Origin: Candidatus Helarchaeota archaeon
GTDB lineage: Archaea; Asgardarchaeota; Lokiarchaeia; Helarchaeales; RDOG01
Reading direction: 5' to 3'
Length of the DNA: 32,000 bases
Assembly (NCBI GenBank): GCA_029838215.1
Contig: JALGVI010000003.1
Coordinates: forward strand, 53,350 to 85,349
Shown piece by piece: positions 1,176-13,758 of this stretch. A program made the translations under genes and the position numbers. Position 1 is the first letter of the stretch. Each line of letters starts with the position of its first letter. The notes under the pieces were generated by a model. That model saw nothing but the letters and a program-made list of their open reading frames with translations. It was not told where the DNA came from and did no database searches.

Positions 1176-1209
1176 ACAATTAATATGTATCGTAAACGGA
1201 GATAAATTG

Positions 1210-1518
1210 ATGAAAAACATCGCCTCTCGCATCCACAAAGAATTAGAAGCAGACATTGAGGAATTCATGAAAGAAAGAGGGTTGGATAAATCGTCGGCAA
1301 TTAGAATAATACTACAAATAGGAATAGCCGAGTGGAAAAAAAACAGGGCAATTGAGTTATATAAGATTAAAAGGATTACTTTATGGAAGGCTTCTCAAAT
1401 GGCTGGTCTTTCTCTCAGAGAAATAATCGAAGAATTAAATCGCCGAAAAATCCCGATAAACGTTACAACTCAGGAAATTATTGAAGACATAAAAGCTGCT
1501 AGTGAGGCAGAATCGTAA
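1210..1518 (+). CDS. UPF0175 (COG2886)-type antitoxin-like DNA-binding protein
   Basis: The C-terminal half (AIELYKIKRITLWKASQMAGLSLREIIEELNRRKIPI) matches the UPF0175 HTH pattern, and the N-terminus looks ribbon-helix-helix-like. GGAG lies 9 nt upstream of the ATG at 1210; the ORF track starts at TTG 1207. The 3' end abuts or overlaps the PIN-like gene. Confidence 0.6.
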   Translation: MKNIASRIHKELEADIEEFMKERGLDKSSAIRIILQIGIAEWKKNRAIELYKIKRITLWKASQMAGLSLREIIEELNRRKIPINVTTQEIIEDIKAASEAES

Positions 1519-2074
1519 GTTGCAAAAAGCGAAGAAATCTAAAAAATCATTTATATTAAATGCCACTCCTTTGATATTTCTTTCAAAAATTGGTTTTTCA
1601 AGCATTTTGAATGAATTCAAAGAAGAAAAGTTCACGACTCCGTTAGTTAAAGAAGAAGTCGTGACTAAAAGAAAGGAAATTGGTGTCCCGGATGCGGTTG
1701 TCATCGAAGCAATGATAAAAAATGGCATTTTGAAAGTTAGGACACCGACACAAAATGATTTCATCAATGTATTAAGGCAAGTTCCAGAGCTCCACGAAGC
1801 AGAAATTCAAGTTCTTGCTTTAACAAAAGAAATTAATGGGATAGCGATCTTAGATGATACAGTCGCCAGACAAGCTGCCATTGTATTCGAAATTGAAGTT
1901 CATGGAACTGCATATTTACTTTTAAGACAATATTTCATGGGTTTTTTATCAAAAAAGCAAACAATCACTGCATTAAACAAGATGATTTCTGTTGGATGGT
2001 GGATTTCAGCTGGTGAATATGTGAAAATATTAGAAGAACTCGATGACGATGAATATATTCATAAAAATTTATAA
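1502..2074 (+). CDS. PIN-like nuclease of the COG2405/DUF3368 family (putative toxin partner of UPF0175)
   Basis: FILNATPLIFLSKIGFSSIL...TPLVKEEV fits the DUF3368 N-terminal pattern (DssPLI.L..i..l.lL...iP..V..Ev). HEAEIQVLAL and ILDDTVARQAA supply the further acidic residues expected of a PIN-like fold. The start is ambiguous: GTG 1502 overlaps the antitoxin by 17 nt, and TTG 1520 lies 1 nt after its stop. Confidence 0.6.
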   Translation: MRQNRKLQKAKKSKKSFILNATPLIFLSKIGFSSILNEFKEEKFTTPLVKEEVVTKRKEIGVPDAVVIEAMIKNGILKVRTPTQNDFINVLRQVPELHEAEIQVLALTKEINGIAILDDTVARQAAIVFEIEVHGTAYLLLRQYFMGFLSKKQTITALNKMISVGWWISAGEYVKILEELDDDEYIHKNL

Positions 2075-4364: not shown

Positions 4365-4883
4365 TTAACTCATCATTTTTAATAGATGGCCCGCTTCCTT
4401 GAGTATGATCTGTTCAAGAGCCAGCTTTACGGCATTTGGTGATCCCGGCAGGCAAAAAATTACCTTTCCCTTGTACGTGCCTGCAAGTGCCCTTGAAAGC
4501 ATGCTGGCAGTTCCAATTTCTTTATAGCTCAGGTAACGAAAGAGCTCTCCAAATCCATTAATTTCCTTCTCAAGAAATGGTCGAATGGATTCAATGGTAA
4601 CATCTCGCGGGTTAATTCCTGTTCCTCCTGAAAAAATTAGAATTTCTATCGTATTCATTAAGGGATTTTGAAGTATCTTTTTTATTTTTTCTTTTTCATC
4701 AGGAACAATTTCGAACCATGCAAGTTCTTGCTTATCTTCCTCCAGAATTTGCCGAACTTTTGGAATAGTTTCATCCGTAAGTTGTTTTCCCTGTTTCAAT
4801 TCAAGATAACGAGAGTCACTTACTATGACCAAGCCATATCTAATGGTCTTCTTCACATTCTTTTTATGTTTCAAGTGAACCAT
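4365..4883 (-). CDS. moaB: Molybdenum cofactor biosynthesis protein B (MoaB/MogA family)
   Basis: LVIVSDSR..., FSGGTGINPRDVT, FGELFR, ASMLSRALAG and FCLPGSPNAV are MoaB/MogA blocks. GGAG lies 9 nt upstream of the ATG. Confidence 0.85.
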   Translation of the reverse strand: MVHLKHKKNVKKTIRYGLVIVSDSRYLELKQGKQLTDETIPKVRQILEEDKQELAWFEIVPDEKEKIKKILQNPLMNTIEILIFSGGTGINPRDVTIESIRPFLEKEINGFGELFRYLSYKEIGTASMLSRALAGTYKGKVIFCLPGSPNAVKLALEQIILKEAGHLLKMMS

Positions 4884-4904: not shown

Positions 4905-5357
4905 TTAAAGATCCTGCTTGATTTTTTCAATAACCAAGATGTCCGAAATTTTGGTATTGGGATATTGTCCATTTTCGTCCTTTTCTAAATATTTTGTCAT
5001 GTCCCAAATCGTTAGGAGCGCGATCTCTACTCCCATGAGAGCCTCTAATTCAACTCCTGTCTTGGCAATTGCTTTTACTTCTACAAAAACATTGATGAAT
5101 TTCTCTTCAATTTCGAAAGAAACATCCACGCTCATGATTGGAATTGGATGTGCTAAAAAAATAAATGCAGGAGTCTGCTTAACTGCATTCACGGCAGCCA
5201 ATTCTGCATTCGCCAACACGTCCCCTTTTTTGATTTTATTTTCTTTTATGGTATTTATTGTCTCTTTCTCTAGAAATATTGTGCCTCTTGCCCGAGCCAC
5301 TCTTAAAATGTCTTTTTTTTCCGAAATATCAATCATTGAAGTCCGTGACGTGCGCAT
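4905..5357 (-). CDS. moaC: Cyclic pyranopterin monophosphate synthase MoaC
   Basis: [18 protein letters not shown]...[32 protein letters not shown]....[20 protein letters not shown] matches the MoaC pattern. Confidence 0.9.
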
Positions 5358-5449: not shown

Positions 5450-7243
5450 TTGTCATGGATCTTTTCGGGGGTTCGAACCCAATTGCAGAAAGTGGCGACG
5501 CCGGAAGAAGATAAAGGAAAAGTGATTTTAAAAGTTGCAGCATATGCGAAAATAGTTCTTCATTGCTCTCGTTTTGCAAATGCAAAAATACCGAAGGGAA
5601 AATGGAAAGAAGTCTATGGATTTCTAGTTGGTACCATCAATGGCGATGATGTTATTGTCAATGATGCAGTTCCAATGACTCACGGTGGTTCTACTGAAGT
5701 AGAGTTTGAAGAAAAGCATTACATTGAAGCTGCCGAATTGGATGCACGATTAGCCGAAACCGGAAACGATTTTATAGTCGGTTGGTATCACAGTCATCCC
5801 GGATTAGACGTATTTTTCTCATGGATAGATGTTCGAAACCACATGGGATTTCAAGGACCTAATCCTAAAAGTATTGGACTCGTGTTTGATCATACGAAGC
5901 TATCCAATCCCGGCGACTTGGGGTTCGAAATATATCGAATCAAGGAAATATCTCCTGATTCGGGTTACTATGAAGTGAAGTGGGTAATTCCTGACATGAG
6001 CGAGGAAGTGTTTGCTAAGACTTTATTTAATCTTTCCACGCGCTCAACTGAACAAAAACCTTTAATTGAAGAATATGGTGAAGATGAAGCAATGGAACTT
6101 GTTCCGCTCACACCAGTTCAAACTAAAATAAGTCTGATCGAGCCATCGCAACAAATGGAACTTGCTCCTCAAACAAAAGAAACTGAAAAGGCAATTGAGA
6201 AGCTCGAAAAAGCTCTTGAATTCAGTAGGAATGAAAAATACGAAAAAGCCGTGGATCTAGCCATAAGTGCTGTACGGGATTTTGAAAAATTAAATGATAT
6301 CGGACGTGCTACTGACGCATATGTTCAGATAGGCGGTATTTTTCTAGATTATTATGAAAAAAACAAGCAAATTAGAACCGATATTTTCAGTCATAAGCGT
6401 GCTCCAACCATCTCTGATGCCGATTCAATGATCAATTTTGCCAAACTGCTTAACATCACGTCGAAACAGATTGACTTCAATAAAACTGGACTGGAAAATG
6501 AAATTAAAGGTGTTTCTGGAGAAATGGTCAGGGTTCTCGATGTCAGGATTCAAATTGCAAATATTTTAATTGAAGCATCATCTGTTTGCCAAATTTTATC
6601 CCGAAATGCGAGAGATAATCGCGATTTAGACGGACAGGTAACCTATCTTACAAAAGCGAACAATGCCTTGAGTACAGCACTCATATTTTTAAGGGCAGTT
6701 GAAGACCAAAAGGATCTCGTTGAAAGAATTTTTGATTTGGATAAATTAACGAGTGATATAAGCCAAGCGCAAGCACGCATCCAAGAGTTACACGGATTAA
6801 AACAATTCCTTAATGTTAAACACATCGAAGCGGCTAATTTGTTCGCTGGTGCAGCACGGATTGCTGAAGATGGCTCAAATGCAATCAAGACCGAAAAATT
6901 CCAAAAATTATTGCTCGCCTACTCTAAAACACTTCAAGGCAGAGCATATCACATGGTTGCTGAAAATGAAAAATACCTAAAAAGAAACATCTGTAAATCC
7001 GTCGGCTACTATCGATTGGCTCAAAATTTCTTTGAGGATGCAAGGACGCTATATCCTCCCTGGGCAAAGAGCGATATCGATAAAAACCAGGGCTTCTTTA
7101 ATGAAGTTGAACATCAAATTCAAATAGGATATAAAAAATGCCTTGAAAGTGGAAAAACTCCCATGGAATTTCCACTGTCAAAAGAGATTGAAATTCCTGG
7201 CAAGATTATTTTATCGCAACCGGAACCCTTATTCTTTCCCTAA
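5450..7243 (+). CDS. JAMM/MPN+ metalloprotease (Rpn11/CSN5-like catalytic domain) with a ~400-aa alpha-helical C-terminal extension
   Basis: The JAMM signature is complete: Glu in KEVYGFLVG, then GWYHSHPGLDVFFSWID, which is H-x-H-x7-S-x2-D (nt ~5789-5830). The remainder (from ~nt 6000) is helix-rich with TPR/MIT-like hairpins (AIEKLEKALEFSRNEKYEKAVDLAISAVRDFEKL). The start codon is uncertain because there is no in-frame ATG; candidates are TTG 5450 and GTG 5483/5522. Confidence 0.85.
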   Translation: MSWIFSGVRTQLQKVATPEEDKGKVILKVAAYAKIVLHCSRFANAKIPKGKWKEVYGFLVGTINGDDVIVNDAVPMTHGGSTEVEFEEKHYIEAAELDARLAETGNDFIVGWYHSHPGLDVFFSWIDVRNHMGFQGPNPKSIGLVFDHTKLSNPGDLGFEIYRIKEISPDSGYYEVKWVIPDMSEEVFAKTLFNLSTRSTEQKPLIEEYGEDEAMELVPLTPVQTKISLIEPSQQMELAPQTKETEKAIEKLEKALEFSRNEKYEKAVDLAISAVRDFEKLNDIGRATDAYVQIGGIFLDYYEKNKQIRTDIFSHKRAPTISDADSMINFAKLLNITSKQIDFNKTGLENEIKGVSGEMVRVLDVRIQIANILIEASSVCQILSRNARDNRDLDGQVTYLTKANNALSTALIFLRAVEDQKDLVERIFDLDKLTSDISQAQARIQELHGLKQFLNVKHIEAANLFAGAARIAEDGSNAIKTEKFQKLLLAYSKTLQGRAYHMVAENEKYLKRNICKSVGYYRLAQNFFEDARTLYPPWAKSDIDKNQGFFNEVEHQIQIGYKKCLESGKTPMEFPLSKEIEIPGKIILSQPEPLFFP

Positions 7244-7819
7244 AGGGAAATCGTATAACGTGGTGTAAATTGGACCTGCTCTTGTCAATTGACTTTTTTT
7301 TAATTGAAAGCTATTGACTTGCATGGTTCCGACTTCTTCAGAGTGTTTTTGATGCTCCATTAATTTCGTAATCAGGGCATTGCGATTCCGTCCGCTTCTT
7401 ACCCTTCCAATGGTTAAATGGGCTTGAAAACGCTTTTCTCTTTTTATCCCATACCGTGAAACCGTAGAATCTATTTGTTTCGAGAGATCCATGACTTCAT
7501 TTTTTCCTTTATCAATACCGATCCAAATTACCTTCGGAAATGCGGGTTTTGGAAAAGATCCAACACTTTTAAATTCTATTTCAAACGGTTTGATGGATAT
7601 TTTCTTTACATCTTCAATGATGTCCTGTAATACTCTTTCTTCGACATCCCCTAAAAATTTAAGAGTTATGTGAATGTTTTTGATTTCAACATATTTAACG
7701 TGGGCATTGGTTACTCGAAACTCCTCTTGGATTTTACCAATGTTTGACAATATGTTTTCATCAATAACTTCTATGGCAAAAAAACTTCTCAACAATACCA
7801 ATTTATCACGCTCTTCCAT
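7229..7819 (-). CDS. thpR: RNA 2',3'-cyclic phosphodiesterase / 2'-5' RNA ligase family (2H phosphoesterase, LigT/ThpR)
   Basis: Two H-x-T-x motifs sit at the expected spacing: HITLKFLG and HLTIGR. The length (196 aa) is typical. The 3' end overlaps the convergent JAMM gene by 15 nt. Confidence 0.8.
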   Translation of the reverse strand: MEERDKLVLLRSFFAIEVIDENILSNIGKIQEEFRVTNAHVKYVEIKNIHITLKFLGDVEERVLQDIIEDVKKISIKPFEIEFKSVGSFPKPAFPKVIWIGIDKGKNEVMDLSKQIDSTVSRYGIKREKRFQAHLTIGRVRSGRNRNALITKLMEHQKHSEEVGTMQVNSFQLKKSQLTRAGPIYTTLYDFPLGKE

Positions 7820-8057
7820 AATTTCGTTTTTGACTGATTTTTTTTATCTTTATCGTGCAGGATGCTTGTAAATTTTTGTTAACTCTTACTAAAATCATAT
7901 CTTGACGCAATGAAAATAAATTAAAATATCAAACTAGAGCTAGTTCTTAACAGAAATTCGCACATTAGGGATATAAAACTATATAATAAAATGGTATGAA
8001 GTTGATCCTCGAAGCAAAACACCAAACATCTAACACGAATGGACAGCAGGTTATTAT

Positions 8058-9173
8058 TTGACTGGAAAAAAACGAAAAATTCGAGAAATTTCAATTAAAC
8101 GCGATGATATTAGTGTAGGATATTCGAAAATATCTGAAAGTCCTGGTGTCGATGAGGTAGTCATAAAACCCATTGGCTTCCCTTTGATTGCTCTAGGGGA
8201 AGAAAGACAATTCATACGAACTGATAATCCAAAACTCTTTAATTCGTATGCTATTGCTCAGTGGAGTGGAACTTACGTCACGGAAGGCACGTATATTTTT
8301 GATCAATTTCTATTTCCTGATTTTGCATTTGAGATAATTTCTGTCAAGCCTGGACCGGGTAAAATTACATCTGGCACTTCTATTGTGCTTCAGTCAAAGG
8401 AAAAGCTCATTCGCAAGGAATTTCCTAATGTTAGCTTTGACGATATCATCGGTAATCATGAAGCAAAGAGAAAATGTCAAATTATAATGAAGTACTTACA
8501 AGATCCTGACCGATTTGGAGAATGGATTCCGAAAAATGTCCTATTTTATGGACACTCCGGAACAGGAAAAACCATGACTGCAAAGGCTCTTGCAAATGCA
8601 ACTAACGTTCCGATATTCCTGATGAGAGCAACGGATTTAATCGGTTTACATGTTGGAGATGGCGCACGAAAGGTACATAACTTATATAGTGAAGCTTCAG
8701 AATCCAGTCCTTGCATCATTTTTATTGACGAATTGGATGCGATAGGTTTAGATCGAAAATACCAATCCATTCGTGGTGACGTGGCTGAAGTCGTGAATGC
8801 CCTTTTATCAGAAATGGATGGAATTACTAACCAATCAGGAATAGTTACAATAGGTGCCACCAATACACCTGCTTTACTTGATGATAGCATTAAAAACCGA
8901 TTTGAATCTTTGATAGAATTCAAGATCTTTGATGACAATGAGCGATATGAGTTCCTTGAAAAGTATTCAAGGCGACTTCCCATGCCATTCAAAATGGACT
9001 TGCATCGCTTGACGAACATGACAAAGAATTTATCCGGACGAGAATTAAAAGAAAAAATTCTTAAGAATGCATTACATCTTGCCATCCTTGAAGATAAGGA
9101 TGAAATCAATGAGGAAATCATCCAGAAGGTCATTATTCACGTGAAAACCTCAAAAAATCCAATGTTCACGTGA
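8058..9173 (+). CDS. AAA+ ATPase with a beta-rich N-domain and a single classical AAA module (COG1223-like)
   Basis: Walker A is GHSGTGKTMTAKA and Walker B is CIIFIDELDA. The second region of homology is ATNTPALLDDSIKNRF. The N-terminal ~125 aa (FEIISVKPGPGKITSGTSIVL) resembles Cdc48/VAT-type N-domains. Only a TTG start (8058) is available in frame. Confidence 0.85.
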   Translation: MTGKKRKIREISIKRDDISVGYSKISESPGVDEVVIKPIGFPLIALGEERQFIRTDNPKLFNSYAIAQWSGTYVTEGTYIFDQFLFPDFAFEIISVKPGPGKITSGTSIVLQSKEKLIRKEFPNVSFDDIIGNHEAKRKCQIIMKYLQDPDRFGEWIPKNVLFYGHSGTGKTMTAKALANATNVPIFLMRATDLIGLHVGDGARKVHNLYSEASESSPCIIFIDELDAIGLDRKYQSIRGDVAEVVNALLSEMDGITNQSGIVTIGATNTPALLDDSIKNRFESLIEFKIFDDNERYEFLEKYSRRLPMPFKMDLHRLTNMTKNLSGRELKEKILKNALHLAILEDKDEINEEIIQKVIIHVKTSKNPMFT

Positions 9174-9217
9174 ATTTTTAGCACGGTTCTTTTTTTAATT
9201 CAAGGAAGAATTTATAC

Positions 9218-9760
9218 ATGAAACCTGAAATGAAAATATTCACGTTAGTTGGTATGCCCGGTGCAGGTAAGTCTGAAGCCACGAAATTAATCGAAGATCT
9301 CGGCATTCCCGTCATCATTATGGGTGATGTAATTCGTGAAGAGATGCGCCGTAACGGCATCGAACTCACGCGTGAAAATATGGGAAAATTCACACGAGAA
9401 ATTCGTGAGCACTTAGGATGGGACATTGTTGCTAAAAAATGCGTGGAAAAGATCAAAAATATCGAAGCAGATATTCTTATCATTGATGGAGTACGAAATC
9501 CTGAAGAAATCGAATATTTCAAAAACAATTTAGAAAAATTTAAGGTAATATATGTCAAAGCCTCTCCCGAAACACGATTCCAACGCTTGCGTGCACGTGG
9601 TCGTGTTGATGATCCATTCACATTTGATGATTTCAAGAAAAGAGATGAACGTGAATTATCATTCGGCATAAAGAAGATCATGGATCAAGCCGATTATACA
9701 ATCGACAATGAGCATGATAGAGAACATTTAAAAGCTCAGATTCTGAAAATTATCTCATGA
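9218..9760 (+). CDS. UPF0200-family P-loop NMP-kinase-like protein (adenylate/dephospho-CoA-kinase-like fold)
   Basis: MKIFTLVGMPGAGKSE (P-loop) followed by GIPVIIMGDVIREEMRRNG matches the archaeal UPF0200 pattern. The start is either ATG 9218 or ATG 9230. The stop overlaps the next gene's ATG (ATGA). Confidence 0.6.
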   Translation: MKPEMKIFTLVGMPGAGKSEATKLIEDLGIPVIIMGDVIREEMRRNGIELTRENMGKFTREIREHLGWDIVAKKCVEKIKNIEADILIIDGVRNPEEIEYFKNNLEKFKVIYVKASPETRFQRLRARGRVDDPFTFDDFKKRDERELSFGIKKIMDQADYTIDNEHDREHLKAQILKIIS

Positions 9761-10818
9761 ACCTATTTTTTATAATCCTAGATGGTTGCTCCCATAAAGC
9801 ATTACAGCTGGCTTCCACGCCATTTCTTGATAATATCTCAAGCTTTACAGTAATGGCTAATGCCGTGCTACCAACGGCTACTTATACGGGTCACTCTTCG
9901 ATAATGACGGGAACCCCACCAAACACTCACGGCATCATTGGAAATGTTTTTTTAGATCGAACTGAAAACCGAATCAAAGATTTCGATGATCATGACGTGA
10001 ACGAATACTTGCTTTGTCCAACGGCTTTCGAGCATTTGGGTGCTTTGCCGGGTGCCGCAATTTGCGAGCCAGTAACTCGTGGAGCAAAATACATCAAGGC
10101 AATGAATGAGATTAATCAACAGCCCGGAGAAATGAGGGATGAAATCGTATTTAAAGACTTACTGCATGCCTTAAAAAAACCTGCCTTAAAACTCTTTGTC
10201 GCCAACTTTTCTGGAATTGACTACATGGGGGAAAATTACGGTGAACGGAGTTCACGATATCTTGAAGAGATATCAATAGTCGATGATTATCTTAAAGAGA
10301 TATATAAAAGAAGTAATGAAAATAGCCTTTTTCTAATCACGGCAGATCACGGCATGACAAGTGCCCGAGAAAATTTGGACTTACAGTCTCTATTTTTAAA
10401 CGAAGGAATTAAAGACGTGATTTGCTTGGCCACACATCGAGCCTCTCATGTTTATGCAAGAGAAAGAGATCTTGAACGAATGACACGGATTCTTGCAAAG
10501 AACGAAAAAATTGATGTAATCTTGAGCAAGGAAGAAATTTCGGCACGCAATCTAAACCATGAACGATGTGGTGATATCGTGGTTTTTGCCAAGAAAGGAT
10601 ATGAATTAAGTAATCATGAAATGGTAGGAAGCCATGGTGGGTTGGACAATCTCGAAAGAGAAGTACCAATTCTCGTGTTTGATAAAAATATTAACGAGAA
10701 AATACGTTTTGATGAGATGCGGTCAAATTATTCAATAATGGACCTCTTGCCCACCGCCCTAAAAATATTAAAACATGAGGTACCATCGTTTTTGTGTGGA
10801 AAAAGTTTGATTCTCTGA
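9757..10818 (+). CDS. Alkaline-phosphatase-superfamily type I phosphodiesterase / nucleotide pyrophosphatase (NPP-like)
   Basis: FFIILDGCS is the metal-ligand Asp block. PTATYTGHSSIMTGTPPNTHGIIGN carries the nucleophile Thr and the HGI motif. ITADHGM and GSHGG are the distal metal ligands. Confidence 0.75.
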   Translation: MNLFFIILDGCSHKALQLASTPFLDNISSFTVMANAVLPTATYTGHSSIMTGTPPNTHGIIGNVFLDRTENRIKDFDDHDVNEYLLCPTAFEHLGALPGAAICEPVTRGAKYIKAMNEINQQPGEMRDEIVFKDLLHALKKPALKLFVANFSGIDYMGENYGERSSRYLEEISIVDDYLKEIYKRSNENSLFLITADHGMTSARENLDLQSLFLNEGIKDVICLATHRASHVYARERDLERMTRILAKNEKIDVILSKEEISARNLNHERCGDIVVFAKKGYELSNHEMVGSHGGLDNLEREVPILVFDKNINEKIRFDEMRSNYSIMDLLPTALKILKHEVPSFLCGKSLIL

Positions 10819-10847
10819 AGAATCCTAAAAATTAAGTAATGAAATAA

Positions 10848-11297
10848 TTAACGGATGGGTTTCTCTTTCTTTCCTTCAACCAATGCCTTTAAAGAAACGC
10901 CATTTATCTTCGTGACCTTCCAACGCACGCCGGGTAAATCTCCAATAGCCCGTCCTTTTGCACCGCCAATTCCTTCAACGATCACTTCATCGTGTTCATC
11001 AATGAAAGTAAGTGCACCATCGCCCGGGAGGAAAGCCGTGATCTGTTTTCCGTTCTTAATGAGTTGAATCCGCACGCATTTTCGAATGCCTGAGTTGGGT
11101 TGTTTTGTCTCAATACCTACTTTTTCGAGCACGATCCCTTTTGCTTGCGGAGCACCTTCTAAAGGATCTGTTTTAACATCTAAACCCAAAACTCGTCGTT
11201 TATATCGAATGTCTTTCCAACGAAAATGTTTCCTTTTTTCTTTAAGGCTTCTTCCGGCCATTAATCCGTTTGGTGATTTTTTTACTATTTTAATCAA
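10848..11297 (-). CDS. rps12: 30S ribosomal protein S12 (uS12; eukaryotic S23 type)
   Basis: [67 protein letters not shown] and [10 protein letters not shown] are uS12 blocks. The conserved N-terminus can only be included with the TTG start at 11297. Confidence 0.95.
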
Positions 11298-11464
11298 CTC
11301 TTTATCTTGAGTGTTCTAAATTCCTTCAACTCAATATGGATGTTTGGAAACGTAAAACACGGCGAATATTTAAAATTTGTGTGATTTCCAAAGGAAAGAT
11401 TAAATTAAAATTTTTTTCTATTCTAAATTGTATTCGTAAGATCCACATCTGGGTGCTTGGTACC

Positions 11465-12634
11465 ATGACTTTGGAAAAATATAGGGATGATATTTATACT
11501 TGTAATAGATCTCGGTGCGGATTCTGCAGGGAACTCTGTCCTGTCTATTCTCAGCTAAAATATGAAGCGTATAGTTCTCGGGGAAAAATGCAGATTGCCC
11601 GGGGGTTGTTAGAAGGCATCATAGAGCCTGATGATGCGCTCATGGAATGCTTGAGTTTATGCACTTTATGTGGGTATTGCAAGGCACGTTGTGCCCTTCA
11701 AAACGTTGAAATCTTTAAAGAGCTCAGGGAAAGTCTCGTGAAGAAGGGATTCGAGAATAAATATCACAAAAAAGCAATAAAAAGCATACAGGAAAATAAA
11801 TCTCCATTCGGTCCTCAGAAGGAAGGACAAAAATCAAGTTGGGCACAAGGATTGGAATTTGACCAGAACTCCAACGTGTTGTTTTTTGTTGGTTGTAGCT
11901 ATCCACGTTCTTTCCCCCAAGTTCTTAAAAATATTCATGAGTTTTTAGCTAAAGTTGACATCAAGTTGGCTTATTTAGGTGATGAAGAAGATTGTTGTGG
12001 ACTCATGATGGATCTTACAGGATATCGAGACGAATTTGAGCTTTATAAGAAAAATTATAAGGAACGGCTCTTACAATTGGGAATCGATACCATAATGACT
12101 CCGTGTCCTGGCTGTTATAAGATACTAAAAAGTTCGTATTTTAATCCTGAAGATGATTCTACTAAAATTAAGGTCGTTCATTTTATTGAATTCGTGGCAA
12201 ACCTAATAGCGAAAAAAAAGATTTCATTCAAGAAAAAGATTGACATGACGATTACCTGGCACGATCCGTGTGATCTGGGACGCCACATGGGCATATTCGA
12301 AGAACCTCGAACCATATTAAAGTCCATCCCTGGTATAAAACTCGTGGAAATGAAAAATAATCGGTATCAAGCGCGATGTTGCGGCTCTGGAGGCGGAATG
12401 CTCACATCCAATGCTGATATATCCATTGATGTTGCAATTCAACGTCTTGAAGAAGCCGAAGAAACTGGTGCTGAAGCTCTAGTTACAATGTGTCCTACCT
12501 GTGAATCGATTTTTGAAAAAGCAATTCGATATACCGATTCTGCGATGAAACTCTACGATCTTTCCGAATTGCTTTTAAATACTTGTAATGGAGATACAAG
12601 GAAGAACACGGGATCTGCCAAAGATTTTTTTTAA
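11465..12634 (+). CDS. HdrD/GlcF/GlpC-like iron-sulfur oxidoreductase subunit (2x ferredoxin-type clusters plus 2x CCG domains)
   Basis: The Cys clusters are CNRSRCGFCRELCP and CTLCGYCKARC. The CCG-domain motifs are EDCCGLM...PCPGC and ARCCGSGGG...CPTCE. I place the start at MTLEKY (ATG 11465). The ORF track's 11336 start adds 43 poorly protein-like residues across the divergent promoter region. Confidence 0.75.
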   Translation: MTLEKYRDDIYTCNRSRCGFCRELCPVYSQLKYEAYSSRGKMQIARGLLEGIIEPDDALMECLSLCTLCGYCKARCALQNVEIFKELRESLVKKGFENKYHKKAIKSIQENKSPFGPQKEGQKSSWAQGLEFDQNSNVLFFVGCSYPRSFPQVLKNIHEFLAKVDIKLAYLGDEEDCCGLMMDLTGYRDEFELYKKNYKERLLQLGIDTIMTPCPGCYKILKSSYFNPEDDSTKIKVVHFIEFVANLIAKKKISFKKKIDMTITWHDPCDLGRHMGIFEEPRTILKSIPGIKLVEMKNNRYQARCCGSGGGMLTSNADISIDVAIQRLEEAEETGAEALVTMCPTCESIFEKAIRYTDSAMKLYDLSELLLNTCNGDTRKNTGSAKDFF

Positions 12635-12657
12635 ACTCAGCCTAATTTTATAGATGA

Positions 12658-13758
12658 TTGAAAGTGAAAATCATAAAAAATAGCGGTATTCATCTAATCG
12701 CAGATGACGTGCATGTTGTCATTGATCCGACCTCCGTGAGAGCTGCAAATGAAGCCGATTTGATTCTCATTTCTCATGCACACTCTGATCACCATCCCAG
12801 CTCATTAAAAAACGTGACACCATTGAAATTGATGAGTGAACCCACGTATCTACTATTATCGAATAAGAAAAAAGGACCAATCTCGCATTTTCATCTTTTA
12901 AAACCGTTCCAAACGCCACGAGATGAATTTGTTTTTGAAAAAAATGGTGACGCCATTAGGATTCAAGCACATCCTGCAGGACATGTGGTTGGAAGCATGC
13001 AATTCTTAATTTCTTTTAACGGCGAAAAAGTGATTTACACGGGGGATTTTTGTCTTGATGATAGATGCGGCATGGAAAAATCAATGATATTGCAAGCCGA
13101 AAATGGAACCTTAATAATAGATAGCACGTATTTTGACAAGGTCGATTCTTTTCCATCTCGCAAGAGAACGTACGTCCGCCTATTGCGGTGGCTTCACCAG
13201 AATTTTAAAAAACCCGGTAAAAAAAGTGCTGTTATCATCGCCCAGCGGTTGGGAACTTGCCAAGAAATTGCTGCTTTGATAAATAATTATTCCACAATTG
13301 AAAATTACAAAATTCATGTCCATGCACAAGTATTTGAGAGCAATCTAGTGCATGCTAAGTTCTCGAGTCTCCAATATTTTTATAAAAAACGTGTTTTCGA
13401 AGAAGAATCTCGGAATACGTGTCGAAATCAGTCCTCTTTAACGTCTTTTTTTGAAACTGAAATGAATAATGGCTCGGGCGTTTCAGATGGTAATGGGAAC
13501 AAGCGATTCATCGGGCAAGTAGGGGCAAAACTGATTTTTCTATTGCCTTTCAATTATGTCCGAAAAATTCAAGAATTGGTTGAGTTTTATGGTGCTGATT
13601 CCATTGCAGTCTGCACGGGTTGGGCCGAAACAAAAATGTTTAAACCCTTGGAAACCGAATTTGGAATTCAGCTATTTCCTTTAACTTCTCATGCTGCTCG
13701 AGTCGATATTCAAAGGTACGAGAAGGAATCGAAAGCAAAAAAAGTCATTTACGTTTAA
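12658..13758 (+). CDS. Metallo-beta-lactamase-fold hydrolase, small beta-CASP-like putative nuclease
   Basis: The MBL motifs are ISHAHSDHH (HxHxDH), AGHVVGS and YTGDF. IIDSTY resembles beta-CASP motif A, and the C-terminal LTSHAARVDI resembles motif B. TTG start at 12658. Confidence 0.7.
   Translation: MKVKIIKNSGIHLIADDVHVVIDPTSVRAANEADLILISHAHSDHHPSSLKNVTPLKLMSEPTYLLLSNKKKGPISHFHLLKPFQTPRDEFVFEKNGDAIRIQAHPAGHVVGSMQFLISFNGEKVIYTGDFCLDDRCGMEKSMILQAENGTLIIDSTYFDKVDSFPSRKRTYVRLLRWLHQNFKKPGKKSAVIIAQRLGTCQEIAALINNYSTIENYKIHVHAQVFESNLVHAKFSSLQYFYKKRVFEEESRNTCRNQSSLTSFFETEMNNGSGVSDGNGNKRFIGQVGAKLIFLLPFNYVRKIQELVEFYGADSIAVCTGWAETKMFKPLETEFGIQLFPLTSHAARVDIQRYEKESKAKKVIYV

Follow-up and report, generated by a model that had tools for sequence, protein, structure and literature searches.

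Which enzyme results when a JAMM protease and a long helical domain share one polypeptide chain is the question raised by a gene of Candidatus Helarchaeota. It lies in a stretch of 32,000 nucleotides (assembly GCA_029838215.1, contig JALGVI010000003.1, positions 53,350 to 85,349 of the forward strand), which is here called the window. A preliminary description of this DNA had assumed an archaeal host, now named, and had noted a plus-strand open reading frame of 597 codons, which is present as described, for an MPN+ (JAMM) protease fused to a helical domain of unknown function. An NCBI-derived public protein (P0001) has the same length and sequence; in public records such proteins go by no more than 'hypothetical protein' or 'Mov34/MPN/PAD-1 family protein'. 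As 27 database proteins and 18 other loci from separate assemblies show this uninterrupted architecture as well, the gene is not a frameshift or assembly chimera, i.e. not two genes joined by an artefact, an option that the preliminary description had considered. The helical domain proved to be homologous to the Bro1 domain but highly divergent, with about 11-14% identity, and we regard it as highly probable that the protein, in the following MPN-Bro1, unites an MPN+ enzyme with such a Bro1 homologue.

The identity of the helical domain was deduced from structure prediction and profile comparison. In the structural model, the C-terminal part of about 355 residues is all helix except for one beta-hairpin; hence, the earlier claim of a helical domain of about 400 residues holds for its helical nature, whereas 'unknown function' has to be replaced by a divergent Bro1 domain. 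For residues 241-597, an AlphaFold2 (AF2) model computed from an alignment of 16 sequences reached a predicted local distance difference test score (pLDDT) of 94 and a predicted template modelling score (pTM) of 0.90. When it was compared with the PDB by Foldseek, ranks 1-20 were all taken by Bro1 domains, headed by HD-PTP (3rau; E 4e-6, template modelling (TM) score 0.64, 351 columns) and including ALIX (3c3o), yeast Bro1 (1zb1) and BROX (3r9m). The model displays the hallmarks of the Bro1 fold, namely a boomerang-shaped, TPR-like solenoid of about 350 residues, a beta-hairpin and a C-terminal strap. TPR, LGN and SNAP proteins ranked below the Bro1 domains (TM <=0.3, root-mean-square deviation >12 Å), and identities as PCI, 14-3-3, SNAP or generic TPR domain were rejected (Foldseek TM <=0.3 versus 0.6 for Bro1). 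Among the Pfam families, none exceeded its threshold on residues 241-597 of this protein and 15 homologues, and a profile search of the PDB sequences with the helical domain returned nothing significant and no Bro1 protein. Faint Pfam signals for TPR, MIT and SNAP were confined to the first hairpin of the helical domain. A MIT domain in this hairpin was discarded, the signals being faint (E 0.015-0.046) and present in three of 16 members, and a marginal match to Sel1-like repeats (HcpB, E 0.023) is superseded by the Bro1 result.

The connection to eukaryotic Bro1 domains at the sequence level is made by intermediates. An exhaustive HMMER search of 1.84 billion (1.84e9) representative proteins with the domain profile gave 10 matches only, which comprise the MPN-Bro1 family, two fragments and three MPN-less proteins, P0052, P0053 and P0054 (E 9e-22, 2.6e-8 and 9e-4 to the family profile, respectively). 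P0054 matches Pfam BRO1 with E 3.2e-8 and 33.3 bits at a gathering score of 35.1, and P0052 matches it with E 1.5e-3. With these three intermediates added to the family, hhalign against eukaryotic Bro1 yielded 94.6% probability and E 7e-8 over 262 collinear columns, which pair Asgard positions 59-330 with ALIX 34-315; reversed-column decoys gave E ~0.03 over about 30 columns, and after leaving out P0054 the value against Bro1 was still E 6e-5. The intermediates matched the family with 99.5% probability and the eukaryotic Bro1 domains with 92%. Paired signature motifs are GLxLEIKD/LxFxWKDAF, IQIANILxEA/fEKaxvLFN, ARIQE/LAQAQE and AAKLYxGAA/KLAxQAAxYY. A search with the bridging alignment for further Asgard Bro1-like proteins gave nothing new. 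As a separate observation, two cysteines of the Bro1-like domain, C515 (6992-6994) and C564 (7139-7141), are invariant in 27 of 27 family members. Further invariant residues are D289, Q293, D323, K339, E351, Q368, N371, E375, T409 and Y520.

The N-terminal part contains an intact JAMM active site, as had been claimed before. Both KEVYGFLVG, with E54, and GWYHSHPGLDVFFSWID, with H114, S115, H116, S124 and D127, are found in the open reading frame, and these six residues are invariant in all 27 full-length homologues, which stem from independent assemblies. Pfam JAB (PF01398) matches residues 24-139 with 54.8 bits (cut-off 22.5, E 1e-14), versus 27.9 bits for Prok-JAB on the same protein; the archaeal desampylase equivalog NCBIfam NF041370 scores 19 bits at a cut-off of 130, which places the protein outside that family. 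Among PDB sequences searched by phmmer, the best match of the MPN domain was CsRpn11, the Rpn11 homologue of Caldiarchaeum subterraneum (6fjv, E 2.6e-12), followed by yeast Rpn11, CSN5, human Rpn11, BRCC36 and AMSH, the latter being a weak match (20 bits, E 1e-3); all 49 matches at E<=1 were eukaryote-type MPN proteins or CsRpn11, and no prokaryotic JAMM was among them. Foldseek with the full-length model retrieved CsRpn11, Rpn11, BRCC36 and CSN5 at probability 1.00. Judged by these HMMER and Foldseek rankings, the MPN domain is eukaryote-type (Rpn11/CSN5/CsRpn11-like) and not part of the prokaryotic JAMM clade, in line with the preliminary description, which had set it apart from the minimal prokaryotic JAMMs. 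Residues 24-200 are predicted from these sequence features to form an active JAMM/MPN+ zinc isopeptidase of the Rpn11/CsRpn11 kind. CsRpn11 is a proven ubiquitin-specific enzyme that leaves small archaeal modifier proteins (SAMPs) uncleaved (PMC6043591).

The catalytic domains of CsRpn11 (6fju/6fjv/6fnn) and Rpn11/PSMD14 are the closest known ones (target-normalised TM up to 0.83), and the likeness includes the E...HSH-x7-S-x2-D site, a flexible Ins-1 loop and paralogues located in clusters with ubiquitin, E1, E2 and RING genes. However, CsRpn11 is a protein of about 200 residues with short C-terminal helices encoded in a ubiquitin operon, whereas MPN-Bro1 carries a 355-residue Bro1 domain and lies away from ubiquitin genes, and Rpn11 is anchored in the proteasome lid through Rpn8 and a helical bundle, in place of which MPN-Bro1 has its Bro1 domain. 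Its identification as an Rpn11 orthologue, i.e. a lid subunit, was rejected in view of the Bro1-like C-terminus and the lack of any adjacent MPN- or PCI gene in the window. HvJAMM1 and the other archaeal desampylases, like prokaryotic JAMMs in general, share the superfamily and the chemistry of the zinc site, but they are minimal proteins of about 130 residues acting on SAMP/MoaD.

The relation to ubiquitin becomes apparent from the paralogues. Over 193 residues, the MPN domain shares 50% identity and 73% similarity (E 1e-72) with that of a Helarchaeota protein with an ApoA-like coiled coil. At locus L010, the gene for this paralogue is part of a cluster with the order UEV/E2-like (with RWD, 421 residues), E1 (ThiF, 409 residues), E2 (UQ_con), MPN paralogue, second ThiF (275 residues) and VWA-RING E3 (394 residues, with a Ssl1-like VWA domain). 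The core of the cluster, i.e. E2, MPN paralogue, ThiF and VWA-RING E3, is repeated at L012 (318-5079), which belongs to the same genome as the MPN-Bro1 locus L008. [quoted passage not shown] MPN-Bro1 belongs to a ubiquitin-associated MPN clade, its closest paralogue being located in an E1-E2-RING cluster. The two proteins also share an [E/A]E[Y/F]GE motif and occur in the same lineage, even in the same genomes; the paralogue differs by its long coiled-coil C-terminus, its position within the cluster and the lack of a Bro1-like domain.

In eukaryotes, the Bro1 domain docks proteins onto the ESCRT-III membrane-remodelling machinery, and yeast Bro1 and HD-PTP recruit the deubiquitinases Doa4 and UBPY to ESCRT-III. 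We know of no eukaryotic Bro1 protein with an MPN domain. By analogy, the MPN+ module of MPN-Bro1 would remove Asgard ubiquitin from protein conjugates, while the Bro1 module would recruit the enzyme to ESCRT-III (Snf7/CHMP4-like) polymers or to another ESCRT component. Cargo or ESCRT subunits, for instance mono-ubiquitinated UEV-Vps23, could thus be deubiquitinated at the site of membrane remodelling, and the protein would act as a single-chain functional analogue of Bro1-Doa4, HD-PTP-UBPY or AMSH. We assign a probability of about 0.5 to such an ESCRT-targeted deubiquitinase. About 320-350 residues of MPN-Bro1 have the same fold (TM 0.5-0.64) as yeast Bro1, ALIX/PDCD6IP, HD-PTP/PTPN23 and BROX, with a beta-hairpin, a TPR-like core, an extended C-terminal strap and collinear signature motifs in common. 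MPN-Bro1 differs from them by its low identity below the Pfam BRO1 threshold, by CHMP4-binding residues that are not demonstrably conserved and by the absence of a V domain and a proline-rich region, and its deubiquitinase would be fused in cis instead of being recruited in trans. The nearest functional analogue may be AMSH/STAMBP and AMSH-LP, in which a JAMM/MPN+ deubiquitinase is likewise coupled to an ESCRT-III-binding module. However, the MIT domain of AMSH is N-terminal and its JAMM domain, with inserts specific to AMSH, is C-terminal, whereas in MPN-Bro1 an Rpn11-like MPN domain comes first and a Bro1-like module follows; this reversed order, the faint MIT signal and the weak AMSH match led us to reject membership in the AMSH/STAMBP family. 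The preliminary description had compared the helical part with PCI, TPR and MIT scaffolds that confer specificity; it is indeed best read as a targeting module with AMSH as a close analogy, but PCI and generic TPR no longer apply and MIT is only faintly indicated.

Several observations weigh against a Bro1-mediated targeting to ESCRT. Neither this protein nor 16 family members match Pfam BRO1 (PF03097) directly at E<=1, and hhalign of the family alone against a 20-sequence alignment of eukaryotic Bro1 domains is collinear over about 247 columns with a non-significant E of 0.046 (overall range of the family-only comparisons with Bro1, E 0.03-0.05). Of the ALIX residues that take part in CHMP4 binding, F199 pairs with a variable position (H/Y/K/S/R), and I212 and L216 lie opposite an 8-residue gap, in a region where the hhalign alignment is of low confidence. 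The CHMP4-binding residues are not demonstrably conserved, hence ESCRT-III binding is unproven and may have been lost or never been present. Moreover, the MPN domain is nearer to Rpn11 than to AMSH in the PDB phmmer search. Finally, none of the 18 distinct loci of our sample has an ESCRT, ubiquitin, E1 or E2 gene within 10 kb; the sample consists of the window, L001-L004 and L006-L009 (L005 being a duplicate of L004) as well as ten metagenome loci that were not de-replicated.

Table 1. Features of the MPN-Bro1 gene and its neighbours. Positions refer to the window, except in the last row, where they refer to locus L010.
Feature	Position	Strand	Residues	Basis or remark
Whole gene, MPN+ / linker / Bro1-like domain	5450..7243	+	597 residues	TTG start; stop 7241-7243
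Predicted MPN+ (JAMM) catalytic domain, Rpn11/CsRpn11-type	5519..6049	+	24-200	Pfam JAB, PDB phmmer, Foldseek
Catalytic Glu54 in KEVYGFLVG	5609..5611	+	54	Invariant in 27-homologue alignment
Zinc-site motif H114-S-H116-x7-S124-x2-D127	5789..5830	+	114-127	Invariant in 27-homologue alignment
P204-x-I-E-E-Y-G-E211 motif, MPN/linker boundary	6059..6082	+	204-211	Alignment; model pLDDT <50
Variable, gap-rich linker, predicted disordered	6083..6172	+	212-241	Alignment; pLDDT <50
Divergent Bro1 domain core, 12 helices plus beta-hairpin (residues 350-362)	6173..7147	+	242-566	AF2, Foldseek, hhalign
Extended C-terminal strap ending in near-invariant PEPLF[Y/F]P (residues 591-597 = 7220-7240)	7148..7240	+		Alignment, AF2 model
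MoaB	4365-4883	-		Divergent from MPN-Bro1 gene; functional link not supported
MoaC	4905-5357	-		Divergent from MPN-Bro1 gene; functional link not supported
LigT-type 2H phosphoesterase	7229..7819	-		15-bp 3' overlap with MPN-Bro1 gene
PRS2-family AAA ATPase	8058..9173	+		C-terminus of HbYX (hydrophobic-tyrosine-X) type
L010 Helarchaeota ubiquitin cluster	6453-13459			MPN + ApoA-like coiled-coil gene at 9881-11296

The two modules are joined by a segment of low predicted order. The full-length AlphaFold model had a pLDDT of 79.6 and a pTM of 0.62, with residues 201-239 below pLDDT 50; this low confidence together with the gap-rich, variable alignment indicates that the modules are flexibly tethered. 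According to the model, a disordered, variable linker of about 40 residues joins the MPN and Bro1 modules. At its beginning, E208, Y209, G210 and E211 are invariant in the 27-member alignment, and P-x-I-E-E-Y-G-E may represent a short linear interaction or autoregulatory motif. The boundary motif was also seen in MPN paralogues with other C-termini, as AEFGEE, LEYGED and MEYGEA. At the opposite end of the protein, P593, F595 and P597 are invariant in the same alignment. The strap was modelled in an extended conformation docked in cis on the Bro1-like domain, with pLDDT 85-90 even without the MPN domain, which agrees with the extended strap that Bro1 domains typically have at their C-terminus.

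The window contains otherwise ordinary core genome, with genes for RNA polymerase A'/A'', thermosome, NusA, S12, an L7Ae/L30e-family protein, TGT, MoaB/MoaC, LigT and an AAA ATPase. Within it, no ubiquitin-like, ThiS/MoaD, E1, E2 or proteasome gene was detected by Pfam scans of all open reading frames of at least 100 codons, by inspection of small reading frames in the intergenic gaps, which added a single gene (the L7Ae/L30e-family one), or by tblastn with ubiquitin and E2 as baits, for which Aigarchaeota operons served as a working positive control. The absence of ubiquitin-like, E1 and E2 genes had already been noted in the preliminary description, and its statement that the gene is divergent from moaC-moaB was likewise correct. 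LigT adjoins MPN-Bro1 immediately downstream in 17 of the 18 distinct loci, with its orientation flipped between two subclades; it is co-directional (+) at L001 (9765-10328), L007, L009, L099 and L101 and on the minus strand in the remaining loci. Every convergent-LigT locus with enough sequence also contains the PRS2 AAA ATPase (for instance L002 10363-11514, L003 10977-12125, L004 10380-11531, L006 6734-7879). The AAA domain of these proteins (PF23900/PF00004/PF23902) is closest to the D2 domain of p97/Cdc48 (E 1e-65), and they end in HbYX-type tripeptides (MFT, LYG, IYL, IYG, MYS), which suggests from sequence features that they could be 20S-proteasome-docking unfoldases. A cobW-MiaB-TruA string is common to L001 and L003, two distant family loci. 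Since such unrelated strings are shared and neighbours lie on opposite strands, the adjacency reflects lineage synteny and is not evidence for a molybdenum cofactor (Moco)/SAMP or proteasome function. We therefore rejected a function inferred from MoaC/MoaB, LigT, PRS2 or HDAC: these neighbours are conserved, but the general synteny is high and they are not co-transcribed, which makes them weak evidence.

One alternative to an ESCRT-targeted enzyme is a deubiquitinase in which the Bro1-fold domain recognises a ligand other than ESCRT. Such a protein could serve another Asgard pathway, for instance small-GTPase/trafficking systems or cytoskeleton turnover, and would be compatible with CHMP4-binding positions that are not demonstrably conserved and with the lack of ESCRT genes nearby. 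The MPN-less Asgard Bro1-like genes lie beside genes for Arf/Ras-like GTPases, Roadblock, actin-like and RING proteins, and the eukaryotic Bro1 pocket also binds peptides of STAM2, endofin and SARA. On the other hand, every characterised Bro1 domain except that of rhophilin binds ESCRT-III subunits, to our knowledge. Since Helarchaeota also encode diverse ESCRT-III proteins (PMC10936438) and a ubiquitin-ESCRT link (10.1101/2023.07.25.550441), we consider a non-ESCRT ligand possible, albeit rather unlikely.

A proteasome- or unfoldase-associated deubiquitinase appears improbable. In this scenario, the Rpn11-like enzyme would take off the modifier while substrates are being fed into an AAA unfoldase, the neighbouring PRS2 ATPase, and into the 20S core; the helical domain would act as a scaffold comparable to the lid, with HbYX-type docking of the ...LF[Y/F]P tail. 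It would be consistent with the nearest relatives of the MPN domain, Rpn11 and CsRpn11, and, in 10 of the 18 distinct loci, with a Cdc48/p97 D2-related PRS2 ATPase with HbYX-type ends that is encoded two genes away. In addition, 26 of 27 family members end exactly at a hydrophobic-aromatic-X sequence (LF[Y/F]P-COOH). However, the helical domain matches Bro1 and not a PCI/lid fold, PRS2 is absent from L008 and from the co-directional-LigT loci L001, L007 and L009, and where present it is not co-transcribed with MPN-Bro1 because the opposite-strand LigT gene intervenes. The tail is moreover predicted to pack in cis on the helical domain with high confidence, and its homologous segment is internal in the MPN-less P0052, P0053 and P0054, hence a free carboxylate does not belong to the conserved traits of this domain; for both reasons the interpretation as HbYX proteasome-docking tail was downgraded. 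Still less credit can be given to a protease for SAMP/MoaD-type ubiquitin-like proteins that processes or recycles a MoaD-like sulfur carrier in Moco biosynthesis as HvJAMM1 does, a link that the preliminary description had proposed. Divergent MoaC-MoaB(-MoeA-MoeA) genes do lie upstream of MPN-Bro1 in 12 of the 18 distinct loci, among members only about 40% identical, and a ThiS-fold gene occurs 7 kb upstream in L001. Yet no MoaD, MoaE or E1 gene adjoins MPN-Bro1, and the Moco genes are missing in L002, L004, L096, L097 and L100, where the MPN-Bro1 gene is retained. The score in the desampylase model is far below its cut-off, the MPN domain belongs to the eukaryote type, the characterised archaeal representative of which leaves SAMPs intact (PMC6043591), and the closest MPN paralogue resides in a ubiquitin E1-E2-RING cluster. 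The high lineage synteny, exemplified by cobW-MiaB-TruA, leaves the adjacency with little weight; hence, the proposed Moco/SAMP link was not supported.

If the preferred reading of MPN-Bro1 as an ESCRT-targeted deubiquitinase is correct, it would touch on the origin of the eukaryotic system. Asgard archaea carry ubiquitin, ESCRT-I, -II and -III as well as Vps4. The accessory layer that links ubiquitin and ESCRT in eukaryotes consists of Bro1/ALIX and ESCRT-associated deubiquitinases. According to Makarova et al. 2024 (PMC10936438), this layer could not be identified in Asgard archaea. The support from Eme et al. 2023 (PMC10307638, supplementary file 5) is limited to short, doubtful hits: they listed Asgard 'Bro1' homologues of about 75-180 residues from Heimdall-, Njord- and Thorarchaeia, which were assigned via PF18097 and appear to be neither full Bro1 (PF03097) domains nor MPN fusions. 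No description of an archaeal MPN-Bro1 protein was found in full-text literature searches. While both kinds of domain were already known, the MPN-Bro1 architecture and a full Bro1 domain in archaea appear to be new. We only tentatively suggest that this is the first bona fide archaeal Bro1/ALIX-type domain, fused to a ubiquitin isopeptidase, and that, if it binds ESCRT-III, the coupling of deubiquitination to ESCRT-III via Bro1 predates eukaryotes. In this case, the Helarchaeota protein would be a single-chain ancestral or sister form of the coupling, and with it one of the last ESCRT accessory components still 'missing' between Asgard archaea and eukaryotes would be in place. MPN-Bro1 thus represents a concrete, expressible protein with which an early coupling of ubiquitin removal and ESCRT-III could be tested in archaeal relatives of eukaryotes.

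The MPN-Bro1 architecture is confined to Helarchaeota-type Asgard archaea. Full-length members have 576-598 residues, are 40-77% identical and come only from Asgard metagenome-assembled genomes (MAGs) labelled Helarchaeota, Hodarchaeota or Promethearchaeota. The preliminary description had allowed for an architecture widespread in ordinary archaea or bacteria, but only three of 185,579 species-representative genomes, Helarchaeota Hel_GB_B among them, have the full form. A further ten metagenome loci, obtained with the Bro1-like domain as seed, all belong to the MPN-fused family, and L031, L035 and L050 were rejected as remote relatives by a profile scan. Paralogues with the MPN domain alone are widespread in Asgard lineages and Aigarchaeota. 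In Helarchaeota, the same MPN core is furthermore found with other C-termini, namely the ApoA-like coiled coils (P0032-P0040) and a TPR-MPN-PCI protein (P0044). Helarchaeota have diversified one MPN+ core onto Bro1-like, coiled-coil and TPR-PCI modules, which resembles the way in which scaffolds give specificity to eukaryotic deubiquitinases.

Some additional observations concern these relatives and the window. P0044 (547 residues, a metagenome protein from the European Nucleotide Archive) is Asgard-type and combines a TPR-like N-terminus, an MPN+ domain and a PCI domain (26.7 bits, cut-off 22), thereby uniting the two kinds of domain that define the proteasome lid, CSN and eIF3. At L090 (5058-11119, Thorarchaeota MAG GCA_048883465.1), the MPN-less Bro1-like P0053 bears a C-terminal zinc ribbon, and a separate JAB protein of 327 residues, 36% identical to the MPN domain of MPN-Bro1, is encoded about 4 kb away; the surroundings contain Ras/Arf-like GTPases, Roadblock, an actin-like protein and a RING protein, and the two genes may be an unfused counterpart of MPN-Bro1. 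Asgard-type MPN genes with 39-48% identity on L054 (Candidatus Deferrimicrobium MAG) and L013/L063 (Bathyarchaeota Bin_245) are probably located on mis-binned Asgard contigs. Finally, an overlapping pair of UPF0175 (antitoxin-like) and DUF3368 (PIN-like) genes at 1207-2074 (+) of the window is probably a toxin-antitoxin module.

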